A DNA stretch of 24,508 bases from a virus. The notes under the pieces were generated by a model that worked only from the letters and a program-made list of their open reading frames with translations, was not told the origin of the DNA and made no database searches. The stretch lies in the UHGV virus genome UHGV-0135138. One strand, 5' to 3'. The first letter of the stretch is position 1; each line of letters begins with the position of its first letter. Positions 1,934 to 21,548 of this stretch are shown piece by piece. The position numbers and the translations under genes are program-made.

Positions 1934-3508
1934 ATGGAATTGAACGACAAACAAATTAAGGATCTGGTGGCGCGACGCCACCCGGAATACGAAAAGAAAA
2001 AAGAACATTGGGACTTCCTCGCCAGCACTTACGCTGGCGGGCGTGGTTGGTTTACAGACAATATCTTTCGTTACTTTAAAGAGGGAGATCAGGAGTTTAA
2101 GGAGAGAGTTGAGCGTGCTTATCGCTTCAACCACACTCGTGAGGTGGTAAACCTCATCAACAAATATCTCTTTAAAGAAGACATTCATAGAAATATCGAA
2201 GAGGCACCAGAGCAGATCCGCAATTTCTGGAAACGTGCGACTCGCCAGAATGCCTCTATTGACTCATTTATGGCCGCTATTGATTTGCAGTCGTCTATTT
2301 ACGGTCGCATATGGGTTGTTGTCGATAGCACGATGAGTGGTGATGTTGAGTCAGTAGCTGACGAGAAAAAGAAAGATGCTCGCGCCTACGCCTACTGGAT
2401 TTCACCTCAGCAAATGCTGGATGTGGCATGGGACGACGACGGGAATATGTTGTGGGCGTTAATTGTGGAAGTCGCTCGTGATGACGCAGATCCTTTTACT
2501 TCTACAGGTCAGGAATACCAACGTTATCGTCTGTGGACACAAAATACGTGGTATCTGTTCCGTGAGGAAGTGAAGAAGGGCGCTGGTGGAGCAGGTCGTC
2601 GTCAGGCAAAAGTTATTTTAGAGGATAGCGGTGCGCATAATCTCGGCGTAGTTCCGGTGTTTCCTGTTGATTGTATTGGAGAAAGTGAATCACCGTATTT
2701 CAGCCCATCGTTGATCGATGATATCGCTTATCTTGATCGTGCGGTTGCAAACTATCTGTCAAACCTTGATGCCATTATTCAGGATCAGACATTTAGCCAG
2801 TTGGCTATACCGGTACAGTCGCTTTTACCTGGTGATGAAAACCACACTAAAGTGCTTGAAATGGGCACAAAGCGAGTCTTCACCTACGATTCTGAAGGTG
2901 GAAACCAGCCGTTTTATCTGTCACCAGACCCGAAACAAGCTCAGATGATCATCACTACGATTAAGACGGTGATTAACGAAATCTACCATTCAGTTGGTGT
3001 AGCTGGTGAGCGAACGAAGCAGGACAACGCACAGGGAATAGATAATTCATCTGGTGCCGCAAAAATGTATGACTTCCAGCGTGTAAATAGCTTACTCGTC
3101 ACAAAAGCAGAACGTCTGGAAAGGGCTGAGCGTCAAATCATGCAACTGGTTGCGAAATGGATGGGGGTAGATCTGGACGAAGATCACTCATTAATTGCGT
3201 ATCCAGAAAGTTTCGATATTCGTGGCCTTACTGATGAATTTTCTGTTGCCGAGAAACTGTCGTTACTTCAGGCACCGGACTCTGTACGTCGTCACCAGAT
3301 GGAAATGCTGATTGAGAAGATTTTCCCGAACATCACTGAGGCGATGAAGAAGGAATTTGATAAAGATCTCTTGAATTTTCCGCCAAAAAATGATCTAAAT
3401 ACCCTTGAAAATAAGTCAGCACTTACTTATGATCAAGGCGCAGCCCAAGAAAGCGGGCAAGATCAACCCCGAGGGAATGGGGACTCATCTACTCAAGAGA
3501 ACGAGTGA
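1934..3508 (+). CDS. portal protein (putative)
   Basis: 524-aa ORF immediately downstream of the large terminase, the canonical portal position. Size and acidic C-terminal tail fit portal proteins. No motif-level confirmation is possible without a search. Confidence 0.65.
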   Translation: MELNDKQIKDLVARRHPEYEKKKEHWDFLASTYAGGRGWFTDNIFRYFKEGDQEFKERVERAYRFNHTREVVNLINKYLFKEDIHRNIEEAPEQIRNFWKRATRQNASIDSFMAAIDLQSSIYGRIWVVVDSTMSGDVESVADEKKKDARAYAYWISPQQMLDVAWDDDGNMLWALIVEVARDDADPFTSTGQEYQRYRLWTQNTWYLFREEVKKGAGGAGRRQAKVILEDSGAHNLGVVPVFPVDCIGESESPYFSPSLIDDIAYLDRAVANYLSNLDAIIQDQTFSQLAIPVQSLLPGDENHTKVLEMGTKRVFTYDSEGGNQPFYLSPDPKQAQMIITTIKTVINEIYHSVGVAGERTKQDNAQGIDNSSGAAKMYDFQRVNSLLVTKAERLERAERQIMQLVAKWMGVDLDEDHSLIAYPESFDIRGLTDEFSVAEKLSLLQAPDSVRRHQMEMLIEKIFPNITEAMKKEFDKDLLNFPPKNDLNTLENKSALTYDQGAAQESGQDQPRGNGDSSTQENE

Positions 3509-5333: not shown

Positions 5334-5351
5334 TAGGTAAGTAATTACCTA
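5334..5351 (+). promoter_or_regulatory. gene-junction element TAGGTAAGTAATTACCTA (imperfect inverted repeat TAGGTAA-n4-TTACCTA)
   Basis: 17/18 identical to 1905-1922. Lies 10 nt after the capsid stop and just upstream of the terminator hairpin. Confidence 0.35.
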
Positions 5352-5355
5352 TGTT

Positions 5356-5384
5356 AAAGGGTGGGCTATACGCCCACCCTTTTT
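5356..5384 (+). terminator. intrinsic (rho-independent) terminator after the capsid gene
   Basis: AAAGGGTGGGC-TATAC-GCCCACCCTTTTT: GC-rich stem of 8 bp (extendable to 11 with flanking A/T) followed by a T5 run. Confidence 0.8.
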
Positions 5385-8258: not shown

Positions 8259-8642
8259 GTGTTTATCGAAGCGTTTGCAAGTTTGATGCAGAAGGCAAAG
8301 ATTGGCACGGTCGGGACTGACATTTTCTGTCACTACTTGCCTGCCAATGTGAAATCTGGCGTCCTGCTTATTAACCCAAATACCGGCATCAGCATCGATC
8401 ATGAGCTACAGGGCTTTTATCACGAATCATTCACAATCATTGTGCGTGGTTCATCAGTAACCACGACGGTTGATAAGGCCAATAAAATCATTGAGATGTT
8501 TCCAGTAGAGGAAACGGAATCTGGTGGTGTTTATTTTCGACTTGTACGACCGATGGCGATGCCAATCATTTATCCCAAAAATGATGGGGCATTAATAGAA
8601 GCAGGCATTCCTGTTGAATTTGCTGGCTATTTATTGAATTAA
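8259..8642 (+). CDS. hypothetical tail terminator / tail completion protein
   Basis: Frame is open from 8136, but a GTG at 8259 immediately follows the upstream stop (coupled start), giving ~127 aa. It is the last gene before the major tail protein gene. Confidence 0.5.
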   Translation: MFIEAFASLMQKAKIGTVGTDIFCHYLPANVKSGVLLINPNTGISIDHELQGFYHESFTIIVRGSSVTTTVDKANKIIEMFPVEETESGGVYFRLVRPMAMPIIYPKNDGALIEAGIPVEFAGYLLN

Positions 8643-8650
8643 GTCAATTG

Positions 8651-8666
8651 GTAAGTATATACTTAC
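8651..8666 (+). promoter_or_regulatory. perfect 16-bp palindrome GTAAGTATATACTTAC (TAAGTA family) upstream of the major tail protein gene
   Basis: Exact reverse-complement symmetry, in a 74-bp AT-rich intergenic region, 8 nt after the upstream stop and 50 nt before the ATG at 8717. Confidence 0.4.
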
Positions 8667-8716
8667 TGTTAGCGCAATAAATGCGTAGAATTAAAGGAAA
8701 AAGGAGTTTTCCATCA

Positions 8717-9463
8717 ATGTCTAATACCCATGTAAAAAACATCAAACTTGGTGCCTGTAAGGTGTCGTTTGGTGGTGTGGATTTGGGGTACACCAAAGGT
8801 GGTGTTCAGGTTGAAGTTGCCACTGAAACGCTGAAAGTCACCGTCGACCAGCACGGTCAGACAATTATGTCCGAGCTGGTGCAGGGTCGTAACATTACCA
8901 TTACTGCGCCGCTGGCCGAGTCTGTATTGAAAAATATGGTCGATCTGATGCCGGGGTCTACTCTGAGCGAAGACGACAACGCTGTGACCATTACTTCCGC
9001 ACAGGGCGTCAATCTGATCGATGTGGCGAAGGAGCTGGTTCTGACTCCGCAGGACACCACCGACTATGTGTTGACCATCCCAAAAGCGGCAACCGCGGGC
9101 AACTTCACGATGACCTACCAGTCTGATGATATCCGTGTGTTCTCTGTTCAATTCAGCGCATACCCAGATGACGCGGGTGTGTTGGGGAAAATGGGAATGC
9201 ACAAGCCTGTTGAGAGTATCGCGATTAATTCAGCTACCCAAACAGTCAAAGTGGGGGCAAAACTCCAGTTAAGTGCGGCTTTCACTCCAGCGGATGCAAG
9301 TAATAAATCTGGGGTATGGGAGTCTAATGCCCCAGATAAGGCTGTTGTAGATCAAAATGGGGTTGTTTCGGGCAAGGCGGTTGGCTCAGTCGAGATTACT
9401 TTCACCGCCGATGACAGCGGAAAAAAAGCAACTAAATCAATTTCGGTAACAGCAGCAGGCTAA
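8717..9463 (+). CDS. major tail (tube) protein with C-terminal Ig-like (Big_2-type) domain
   Basis: ORF is open from 8681, but the ATG at 8717 follows the strong RBS AAAGGAAAAAGGAG, giving ~248 aa. The C-terminal ~85 aa (IAINSATQTVKVGAKLQLSAAFTPADASNKSGVWESNAPDKAVVDQNGVVSGKAVGSVEITFTADDSGKKATKSISVTAAG) has the same Ig-like pattern as the 5398-6057 product. Followed by a hairpin and the chaperone-tape measure pair. Confidence 0.8.
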   Translation: MSNTHVKNIKLGACKVSFGGVDLGYTKGGVQVEVATETLKVTVDQHGQTIMSELVQGRNITITAPLAESVLKNMVDLMPGSTLSEDDNAVTITSAQGVNLIDVAKELVLTPQDTTDYVLTIPKAATAGNFTMTYQSDDIRVFSVQFSAYPDDAGVLGKMGMHKPVESIAINSATQTVKVGAKLQLSAAFTPADASNKSGVWESNAPDKAVVDQNGVVSGKAVGSVEITFTADDSGKKATKSISVTAAG

Positions 9464-9468
9464 ACGTC

Positions 9469-9494
9469 ATACGAGGCTTAATTAGGCCTCGTAT
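9469..9494 (+). terminator. stem-loop (possible partial terminator / attenuator) after the major tail protein gene
   Basis: ATACGAGGC-ttaattag-GCCTCGTAT, a 9-bp stem followed by CTTGTAT (only a partial U tract). Confidence 0.45.
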
Positions 9495-15151: not shown

Positions 15152-15174
15152 GGATAAGTAAGTTCTAATTTACT
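15152..15174 (+). promoter_or_regulatory. TAAGTAAGT-containing AT-rich element (GGATAAGTAAGTTCTAATTTACT) upstream of L
   Basis: Member of the TAAGTA junction-motif family, 7 nt after the M stop. Followed by a 6-bp stem hairpin, GGCGCT-n11-AGCGCC (15183-15205). Confidence 0.3.
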
Positions 15175-15227
15175 ATTATTATGGCGCTGACAGGATGTTA
15201 GCGCCTACTTATTTCAAGGATGAAACA

Positions 15228-21505: not shown

Positions 21506-21548
21506 ATAAGTAGGTATTTACTTTGTGGTGGGCAAGAATAGCCCACCA
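21506..21548 (+). promoter_or_regulatory. J / tail fibre intergenic element: TAAGTA-family inverted repeat plus GC-stem hairpin
   Basis: ATAAGTAGGTATTTACTT (AAGTA-n6-TACTT inverted repeat) then TGGTGGGC-aagaata-GCCCACCA, an 8-bp stem with no U tract. The stem shares GTGGGC/GCCCAC with the terminator at 5356-5384. An A9 run lies at 21482-21490. Confidence 0.35.

Follow-up and report, generated by a model that had tools for sequence, protein, structure and literature searches.

A stretch of 24,508 nucleotides from UHGV virus genome UHGV-0135138 (as a whole, the window) carries a perfect 16 bp palindrome, GTAAGTATATACTTAC, at 8651–8666, between a tail-terminator gene and a major tail protein (MTP) gene. 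This locus raises the question of whether the palindrome is read by a protein as DNA, is folded as a hairpin in the late transcript, or is symmetrical without consequence. The window was found to be the structural-gene module of an SSU5-like phage-plasmid. Between 7800 and 9193 it showed 94.6–94.8% identity to Escherichia phages Cyrano and CMS-2020a and 81% identity to Salmonella phage SSU5, and a more sensitive search returned 901 related plasmid records from Klebsiella, Escherichia, Acinetobacter, Enterobacter, Yersinia (pMT1), Salmonella (pHCM2) and others. The best explanation of our results is that the palindrome forms, at the DNA level, the core of an MTP expression module complete in itself and, at the same time, is one copy of a dispersed dyad family. 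In its fullest form, a protein-binding dyad laid over the -10 box of a weak, regulated, internal MTP promoter, this is the reading that we favour, tentatively. The features concerned are as follows.

8259–8642, + strand: tail-terminator gene (PF12691 at 1.5e-16; 'tail completion Tc1' in the Cyrano annotation)
8634–8639, + strand: -35-like hexamer TTGAAT, 18 bp 5′ of TATACT, overlapping the last tail-terminator codons (promoter scan)
8651–8666, no strand assigned: the palindrome (H1 when read as RNA), exactly self-complementary, an N6-class member of the GTAAGT/ACTTAC dyad family
8658–8663, + strand: -10-like hexamer TATACT in the right half of the palindrome (promoter scan, 9/12 match with the -35)
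8672–8686, + strand: hairpin H2, GCGCA-AUAAA-UGCGU (minimum free energy (MFE) fold; 5/5 pairs changed on both sides; 95.7% of cells paired)
8696–8712, + strand: hairpin H3, GGAAAA-AGGAG-UUUUCC, with the Shine-Dalgarno sequence (8700–8706) in its loop (MFE fold; compensatory variants)
8717–9463, + strand: MTP gene, 248 amino acids, with a C-terminal Big_2 Ig-like domain (PHROG 1280 and Big_2 matches)

The exact self-complementarity of GTAAGTATATACTTAC was confirmed in the sequence. The gap that holds it extends from 8643 to 8716, after the TAA stop codon (8640–8642) of the tail-terminator open reading frame (ORF), and belongs to the ~3% of the window that is intergenic. A sequence-only reading of this DNA had described the palindrome as sitting alone in a 74 bp AT-rich gap before the major tail protein gene. 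The length and the composition (32% GC vs 48% for the window) were borne out, but the palindrome is not alone, as the conserved hairpins H2 and H3 fill the rest of the gap. The MFE fold of 8640–8725 (+) contained H1, H2 and H3 as three separate hairpins (-15.8 kcal/mol, z = -2.4). The tail-gene context was retained for the downstream gene, and the upstream gene can now be specified as a tail terminator. The downstream gene was named MTP because of synteny (tail terminator, MTP, two small ORFs and a 1531 amino acid tape measure protein (TMP), in this order) and because of its Ig-like C-terminal domain. Its N-terminal part gave no direct family match, and the product is plausibly an MTP on these grounds; the start codon is most plausibly the ATG at 8717, with AAAGGAG at 8700–8706.

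At least one perfect 16 bp palindrome was present in 31% of 1000 first-order Markov simulations of the window (mean 0.37), and GTAAGTATATACTTAC is the only one in the window itself. Symmetry alone is weak evidence; what speaks for a function is where the palindrome lies, how it is conserved and that it belongs to a family. As RNA, the stem grows to 8650–8667 by a G.U pair (7 bp, AUAU loop), and H1 alone folded at -6.0 kcal/mol (z = -1.6) on the + strand and at -4.4 kcal/mol on the - strand. No Rfam match was found, either at the gathering score in the window or at E ≤ 1 in 8560–8800. The palindrome was rejected as an intrinsic terminator, being AU-rich, followed by CUGUUAG with no U-run, and absent from the terminator scan. 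An RNase III site was also judged unlikely because the stem has only 7 bp, which is too short for a substrate of this enzyme.

A total of 105 related loci were gathered, of which 80 were IMG/VR contigs, 5 were genome contigs and the rest came from annotated records of phages and plasmids; these yielded an alignment of 54 distinct versions of the MTP leader on which pairs were counted. The palindrome was kept in all enterobacterial relatives that retain the tail-terminator/MTP junction. Its right half, TATA(T)ACTTA, was invariant in 54/54 distinct relatives. The left arm was near-invariant in E. coli, Salmonella, Yersinia, Citrobacter, Enterobacter, Cronobacter, Klebsiella and a diverged clade represented by locus L015, while the flanking bases varied freely. 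Variants of the left arm were GTGAGT (2 sequences) and GTAAAT (4 sequences, with an uncompensated A.C), and the outer C of the palindrome had become T or A in several lineages. The sequence-only reading had staked the palindrome on its conservation in close relatives, and in this it was supported, by 54/54 for the right half. It had also looked to compensatory changes that preserve the dyad, and of these the orthologue comparison revealed none: changes on both sides were seen in 0/6 core pairs of H1, unpaired cells occurred in 8–9 sequences, and the sequence was frozen, more strictly in the right half than in the left.

The adjacent hairpin H2 showed the opposite pattern. Stems of GCGCA/TGCGT, GCACC/GGTGC, GTGTC/GACAC, AGCAC/GTGCT and GCCGCA/TGCGGC were seen, and the five core pairs included 28 G.U against 3 A.C, which, together with the covariation, shows that H2 is a selected hairpin in the sense RNA. 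In both of the most distant clades H3 carried compensated stems, GGTAAA/TTTACC in L015 and GCAAA/TTTGC in L014. A GGA in a hairpin loop is the kind of site that CsrA binds, and by analogy the GGA within the Shine-Dalgarno sequence in the H3 loop of the MTP leader may be a site of this kind. On this alignment, selection is shown to act on the sequence of the dyad and not on its pairing, most strictly in the right half. The frozen sequence, the stricter right half and the loss of the left arm in the L014 clade (below) point to sequence recognition, notably of the -10 hexamer. A generic 6 bp RNA hairpin, which the sequence-only reading had offered as one of two typical roles, is therefore not favoured for this copy, with 0/6 core pairs compensated against 5/5 in H2.

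Two diverged clades were informative about which parts of the leader belong together. The L014 clade, which comprises an Enterobacter sp. plasmid and relatives from metagenomes, has lost the left arm (AAAAATAGCTATATACTTAC) but keeps TATATACTTAC, H2 and H3 with their spacing unchanged. In the L015/L097 clade the tail-terminator protein was only 48% identical, and the tail-terminator and MTP genes were separated by an intrinsic terminator plus one or more additional genes. Despite this insertion, AGTAAGTATATACTTACT, H2 and H3 were still directly 5′ of the MTP gene; the module therefore belongs to that gene, and MTP in this clade needs a transcription source of its own. The inserted stretch (8341–9024 in L015, and the same junction in L097/L098) holds a small gene that encodes a lipoprotein-like N-terminus (MKKTFIALTLSVTFLVTGC) and is a putative lipoprotein gene, a moron-type insertion at the tail-terminator/MTP junction.

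Examination of the gap for sigma-70-type hexamers revealed TTGAAT-N18-TATACT, a 9/12 match that is weak by itself. TATACT was invariant in all clades save for one TACACT variant, and this included the L014 clade, which lost the left arm, and the L015/L097 clade with its inserted genes. A TTG was found exactly 18 bp 5′ of TATACT in 4/5 clades. Klebsiella had TTGAAC there despite a shift of the upstream reading frame, and the L015/L097 clade had TTGTAA or TTGCAA, in an unrelated sequence context. The base of H2 lay 7–8 nt 3′ of TATACT in all clades, and at the other end of the module a terminator-like hairpin (9471–9492) comes after the MTP stop codon. From these alignments the dyad looks like one that overlaps the -10 box of a separately regulated MTP promoter.

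Cyrano carries an identical palindrome, and gene-level RNA sequencing (RNA-seq) values for LF82/Cyrano were available as log2(FPKM+5), where FPKM is fragments per kilobase per million (PMC9928086, S1 Table). In macrophages at 6 h (MB6), values along the late genes were 4.1 for terL, 4.75 for portal, 5.95 for g4, 7.35/7.79 for the major capsid protein (MCP) gene, 3.7–4.7 for g6–g10 (~4.0 in the three genes further upstream of the tail terminator, Tc), followed by 5.98/5.79 for Tc, 8.49/8.37 for MTP, 7.6 for g13, 4.9–5.2 for g14 and 5.3 for TMP (PMC9928086). In condition B6 the order of the two genes was reversed, with Tc at 5.73/5.64 and MTP at 4.09/4.15 (PMC9928086). The step across the gap was thus +2.5 log2 in MB6 and -1.6 in B6, a swing of ~17-fold in the MTP/Tc ratio, and this condition-dependent change in mRNA was located exactly at the tail-terminator/MTP gap. 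Termination of upstream transcripts within the gap, combined with regulated initiation there, would produce such a swing. The reversal fits a regulated internal promoter with some termination of upstream transcripts, and regulated processing is also compatible with it; constant RNA processing would not reverse the ratio. A second RNA-seq peak comprised g4 and MCP, with abundance falling by 3 log2 at the intrinsic terminator after MCP, and this peak fits that terminator and a promoter-like site at 3405–3433 (below). Additionally, CYRAN_107, which has a dyad 5′ of the gene and 3′ of a terminator, had mRNA 1.3 log2 above that of CYRAN_106.

The palindrome proved to be one of many related dyads. 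GTAAGTA occurred in 5 copies in the window vs 1.41 expected, and was also present at the terL/portal junction and after the MCP gene. The pattern TARGTNNNNAYYTA (core TARGT-N4-AYYTA), which was derived post hoc from a close relative, gave 9 strand-matches at 6 window sites (1909, 3412, 5338, 8652, 15159 and 21507) vs 0.14 expected, an enrichment of >40-fold, and 5/6 of these sites were intergenic. The members of the family in the window other than the palindrome are as follows.

1905–1922, + strand: TAGGTAAGTAATTATCTA at the terL/portal junction, beginning with the terL stop codon (orthologue alignment)
3405–3433, + strand: promoter-like TTGAAA-N17-TATGAT in the 3′-end of the portal gene, with the dyad ATAAGTCAGCACTTACTTAT (3411–3430) in its spacer (best promoter match in the window, 10/12)
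5334–5351, + strand: TAGGTAAGTAATTACCTA after the major capsid gene, 8 nt 5′ of the intrinsic terminator at 5359–5383 (arms covary)
15155–15172, + strand: TAAGTAAGTTCTAATTTA at the tail M/L junction, 5′ of the GC-rich hairpin 15183–15205 (motif scan, alignment)
21507–21520, + strand: TAAGTAGGTATTTA, a degenerate member that precedes the tail-fibre gene and lies 5′ of a GC-rich hairpin (~21526–21547) (motif scan)

The Cyrano genome had ~25 family sites, including TAAGTATTTACTTA at the position before the tail-fibre gene. Pairs of TAAGT with an ACTTA-like sequence at gaps of 0, 4 or 8 nt were strongly intergenic in this genome; 14 gap-4 copies were intergenic vs 2 coding, where intergenic DNA makes up 13% of the genome. 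The shared core of the family was GTAAG-N2-CTTAC, the second class, to which the palindrome belongs, was N6 (GTAAGT-N4-ACTTAC), and a few members were N10. Family sites were kept at orthologous junctions across genera, and such sites could switch class, as with GTAAGTACATACTTAC in Cyrano vs GTAAGTACTTAC in Klebsiella. An Acinetobacter baumannii relative had the same type of element at the same junctions, with the consensus ATATTAGTAAGCGCTTACTAATAT. The half-site GTAAG/CTTAC was thus kept from Enterobacteriaceae to the Acinetobacter relative, the central 12-mer was homogeneous within each lineage, and across the family the loop positions were free and the stem positions fixed. Such deep conservation of the half-site, with the homogeneous 12-mer, argues for sequence-specific recognition, and the family is probably read by a sequence-specific factor. 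The proposal that a shared GTAAGTA half-site marks a family of sites for one factor holds as far as the family is concerned, which is strong and old and makes the proposal a reasonable one, but the half-sites have no single register (2, 6 and occasionally 10 bp). No description of the dyad family was found in the searchable literature by motif strings or under SSU5/pHCM2 regulation, and it is apparently undescribed.

Several copies lay in suggestive surroundings. The 30 nt block at 3405–3433 was nearly invariant from E. coli to the most distant clades, though it is coding. Cyrano dyads stood in promoter-like contexts at 96688, 67880 and 72460, another lay beside a perfect TATAAT before parB, and one was 5′ of CYRAN_45, a putative repressor gene (HTH_19 below the Pfam cut-off, PHROG 8); other small Cyrano proteins had no informative family match. 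TTGnnn-N16-18-TAnnnT was found near 5/24 Cyrano dyads vs ~2.3 expected, and three of these share one register, so a fixed relation between the dyad and the promoter hexamers is suggestive and not general. The dyad core was also ruled out as a -10 element in general, since position 6 of TAAGTA is not a T and a usable hexamer is missing from most copies. With regard to coding, the junction motif TAGGTAAGTAA (1905–1915 and several Cyrano junctions) contains stop codons in all three frames, as does its palindromic partner on the other strand, and it often begins with or directly follows the upstream stop codon (TGA-TAAGT, TAG-GTAAGT). At the tail M/L junction of the IMG/VR relative L048, a tandem GGTGAT repeat (TGGTGATGGTGATGGTGATGG...) was inserted 3′ of the dyad.

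In the mechanism that we tentatively favour, host RNA polymerase would start at ~8670–8672 from an MTP promoter that would be intrinsically weak (18 bp spacer, 4/6 match at the -35). A dimeric DNA-binding protein on the dyad, at ~-20 to -5, would gate this promoter and would keep the -10 covered while the element is a plasmid (lysogeny) or in early infection; the same factor would bind the other family dyads, several of which also lie within promoter-like sequences. The resulting MTP mRNA would have its 5′-end protected by H2 and its ribosome-binding site held open by H3, such that dyad, promoter, 5′-terminal hairpin and Shine-Dalgarno-presenting hairpin would together provide the tail-tube gene with an abundant mRNA of its own. 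Operators that cover the -10, such as LexA boxes, those of lambda CI at OR/OL and those of P1 C1, resemble the present site in that a conserved dyad covers the -10 of a promoter-like sequence, and the copy 5′ of a putative repressor gene is a further likeness to phage and SOS operators. They differ in that spacing here is N2, N6 or N10, many copies are outside recognisable promoters, and the binding protein is represented only by candidates from annotation. The P1 C1 operators are the closest functional analogy for a plasmid-prophage, as the P1 record has many dispersed copies at many separate promoters of a plasmid-prophage genome, although these are asymmetric 17-mers of unrelated sequence. 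For H2, a stem-loop at the extreme 5′-end is a means by which E. coli mRNAs such as that with the ompA leader are stabilised, and the hairpin of the ompA 5′ untranslated region was reportedly described by Emory, Bouvet and Belasco in 1992 as a 5′-terminal stabilising stem-loop of bacterial mRNA. Like it, H2 would be at the extreme 5′-end of the transcript and is conserved in structure and not in sequence; unlike in ompA, the 5′-end here is a predicted one, and the comparison concerns H2 and not the palindrome.

Several observations weigh against a dyad-gated promoter. The hexamers are only a 9/12 match with an 18 bp spacer, promoter-like matches in the window did not exceed those in shuffles (16 vs 24.6), and the L014 clade has no TTG at the -35. 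The MTP gene of the Acinetobacter relative was preceded by an ordinary dyad without TATACT, which suggests that the -10 hexamer at the dyad may be a lineage-specific overlay. Half-site spacing varies (N2, N6, N10) and the register to promoter-like hexamers is not constant; such variable spacing is awkward for a single dimeric operator protein of fixed spacing. The RNA-seq step could stem from processing combined with differential stability. Finally, signs that favour a role at the RNA level were found elsewhere in the family: the sense strand folded better at 16/24 Cyrano dyads, a count that includes few independent events, and the arms of the site at 5334–5351 covaried, with 33 G.U vs 2 A.C.

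These last points lead to the strongest competitor, which we consider possible though less probable, namely that the dyad is a sense-strand RNA hairpin (the 7 bp, AUAU-loop form of H1) in a late read-through transcript. H1 and H2 would then bracket an AU-rich single-stranded spacer cut by an endoribonuclease (RNase E or a phage factor), the upstream RNA would gain a 3′ hairpin and the MTP mRNA a protective 5′ hairpin, and the family would be intercistronic punctuation that sets mRNA stability. The three separate hairpins of the gap speak for it, as does the + strand folding better at 5/6 window sites. At 5334–5351 the arm variants TAGGTAA/TTACCTA and TAGATAA/TTATCTA, with G.U intermediates, are compensatory pairings of the kind that is absent at the palindrome, and the Acinetobacter copies had a G.U at the same stem position in four sites. 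Moreover, many copies are right after stop codons and 2–10 nt 5′ of a GC-rich hairpin or terminator, N2/N6/N10 spacing is natural for hairpins, and the RNA-seq step is compatible with processing and stabilisation. The counts of strand asymmetry (G.U vs A.C, folding), however, rest on few independent events (sign test p ~0.09), and at the terL/portal site G.U and A.C were equal, at 25 each. At the MTP gene, the stem of H1 showed no compensatory change where adjacent H2 had changed at every pair, uncompensated A.C and G.A disruptions were present, and the L014 clade lost the stem and kept TATATACTTAC. The hairpin is weak, at about -4 to -6 kcal/mol, and in the family stems are conserved and loops are not, the opposite of the pattern that most hairpin-binding proteins recognise. 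Constant processing alone would hardly yield an MTP level 20- to 30-fold above that of the upstream genes or a reversal of the MTP/Tc ratio between conditions.

Known RNA systems offer partial parallels. T7 RNase III sites are intercistronic processing hairpins, and PeSLs are repeated intergenic regulatory cassettes of T4-type phages; as in these, similar hairpin elements occur here at many junctions, often by terminators or promoters. The stems here differ in being of 5–13 bp, AU-rich and mostly too short for RNase III, and in having a sequence conserved across genera, with no Rfam match. The FljA-like RNA-binding protein CYRAN_114 was considered as a hairpin binder and set aside, as no evidence connects it with the dyads and the reported list of lysogen-expressed genes lacks it. 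Because covariation is missing and conservation is asymmetric, we have a moderate preference for recognition of the palindrome site at the DNA level over the RNA level.

A more specific proposal, which we consider unlikely, is that the host nucleoid-occlusion protein SlmA (TetR-family), or a protein with the same specificity, binds the dyads, so that lytic genes would be silenced or roadblocked, or amplified sites would activate SlmA against FtsZ and block division. The SlmA-binding site (SBS) of E. coli is GTGAGTACTCAC; G, T, A and G are needed at positions 1, 2, 4 and 5, position 3 can be any purine (G to A: Kd ~60 nM vs ~50 nM) and position 6 any pyrimidine (PMC3020112). Reporter repression by an SBS set between the -35 and -10 has been shown, as has a division block in cells with multicopy SBS plasmids (PMC3573117), both of which would suit the proposal, while the chromosomal SBSs were reported outside promoters (PMC3020112), which would not. 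Judged by sequence, the half-site GTAAGT/ACTTAC agrees with every SBS rule, and the N2-class members of the Klebsiella, Salmonella and Acinetobacter relatives read as perfect 12 bp SBSs. A Klebsiella grimontii phage-plasmid had 5 identical copies of GTAAGTACTTAC, all between annotated genes, where strict matches by chance were estimated at <0.5 in 109 kb; the Acinetobacter locus had GTAAGCGCTTAC twice in 18 kb, and Salmonella relatives had GTAAGTGCTTAC or GTAAGCACTTAC. The central dinucleotide of 41 distinct N2 sites was always pyrimidine-purine, a rule that could also arise from transitions alone. At the palindrome itself the half-sites are 4 bp too far apart (GTAAGT-ATAT-ACTTAC), so the abutting 12 bp arrangement of the relatives is not found here. 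Strict sites were rare in the E. coli lineage, with 0 in the window and one in Cyrano vs ~0.4 expected, and allowing one mismatch gave only ~2-fold enrichment; the dyads of the L014 clade (GGTAGTTAGCTACC) break positions 4 and 5. Were the SlmA reading true, the extra 4 bp at the MTP promoter would mark this copy as a variant adapted to regulation and not to canonical SlmA binding. That SSU5-like elements recruit SlmA or a mimic to their own DNA, as a global silencer or to stop host division after lytic amplification, we regard as improbable, if a shade less so than the identity of the dyads as SlmA sites.

Very unlikely is a role of the dyad as activator box in a late promoter of the P1 type, where an Lpa-like activator associated with RNA polymerase reads an inverted repeat at -22 in place of a -35. 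The annotation of the P1 record gives late promoters as a 9 bp '-22 region', 4 nt and a -10 hexamer, with the boxes AAGTGACTT, AAGTGACTA, AAGTGATTT, AAGTTACTT (twice) and AAATGACTA. P1 and SSU5-like elements are both enterobacterial phage-plasmids, share the half-sites AAGT/ACTT and the host range, and have copies scattered in late genes. The arrangement at 3412–3433 of the window (AAGTCAGCACTT-ACT-TATGAT) is P1-like, and at four other promoter-like sites the dyad centres lay ~20–25 nt 5′ of the predicted starts. Spacing, -10 position and activator gene all mismatch nonetheless. AAGT and ACTT are separated by 4 bp here (0 in Klebsiella) and not by 1; the -10-like hexamer is inside the palindrome instead of 4 nt downstream, with no TAnnnT at +3 to +5 after ACTT (ACTG-TTAGCG) in the window or any relative; and in most family members a -10 at a suitable distance is lacking. 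Cyrano yielded no Lpa homologue: the best tblastn match had E = 0.29 and nine candidate regulators or small proteins missed PHROG 1704, searches of limited sensitivity. Membership in the P1 class is largely refuted at the palindrome by the missing -10 downstream, although by analogy the dyad may work in a related way.

Least probable of all is incidental symmetry, in which TATACT beside a GGTAAGTA-type stop-rich junction motif was completed to a palindrome by template-switch repair or chance without dyad function: the simulated frequency of perfect 16-mers, the stops of TAGGTAAGTAA in all three frames with several copies overlapping upstream stops, and the L014 clade managing without a left arm would allow it, but the left arm is nearly invariant across the enterobacteria named above and the L015 clade between free flanks, and the >40-fold enriched family is kept at orthologous junctions out to Acinetobacter.

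Further elements were noted near the sites discussed and elsewhere in Cyrano.

9471–9492, + strand: terminator-like hairpin ACGAGGC-N8-GCCTCGT followed by AUCUUGU, just 3′ of the MTP stop codon

Cyrano had a clearer hairpin and U-run at the same position after MTP. At the tail M/L junction, the GC-rich hairpin GGCGCTGACAGGATGTTAGCGCC with its T-rich tail (15183–15205) spans the first ATG of the ORF called for tail protein L, whose start is annotated ~50–90 nt downstream, after AAGGA, in relatives. Cyrano mRNA falls by ~2 log2 from M to L, which suggests that the hairpin probably acts as an attenuator and that the listed L start is probably wrong.

A second, unrelated intergenic repeat family, (A)TAAGAAAACAA-N-TTGTTT, is built on the 13 bp palindrome AAACAANTTGTTT. 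Its many Cyrano sites include 50–100, 32085, 43110, 58600, 70330, 80555, 81285, 93140, 96290, 97195 and 98435, and within the window the family is represented only by the end of the terS leader (1–18); two copies and then a terminator-like hairpin precede terS. Typically an intrinsic terminator comes before the repeat and the Shine-Dalgarno sequence of an early or non-structural gene comes after it, and from this placement the repeats look like a promoter/operator cassette for a different gene class. The product of CYRAN_114 (32780–33301 of the Cyrano locus L017, - strand; 'transcriptional regulator') is a full-length FljA homologue (PF03614, 1e-80). FljA is the repressor of phase-1 flagellin in Salmonella, an mRNA-binding translational repressor, and CYRAN_114 is possibly a host-flagella moron on the phage-plasmid. 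Additionally, a LexA-box-like sequence, TACTGTATGTGTATACAGTA, was found 5′ of the UmuD-like S24 peptidase gene CYRAN_98 (~89250–89300 of Cyrano, ~21250–21300 of L017), in keeping with reports that Cyrano is SOS-inducible (ciprofloxacin).

SSU5-like phage-plasmids occur frequently in clinical E. coli, Klebsiella, Salmonella (pHCM2), Yersinia pestis (pMT1) and Acinetobacter, and nothing published on the regulation of their lytic genes was found in the searchable literature. The palindrome leads to a testable regulatory grammar for these elements, made up of a dispersed and deeply conserved dyad family, candidate internal promoters and a covarying 5′ leader. It includes at least two candidate internal 'booster' promoters, for the capsid gene and the tail-tube gene, which match the two RNA-seq peaks. 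Should the dyads be RNA processing signals, they would be a new sequence-defined class of intercistronic punctuation, and should they be SlmA-type sites, a mobile element would be exploiting the cell-division control of its host in a new way. As operators, the dyads would mark the regulon of a master regulator of the lysis/lysogeny state.

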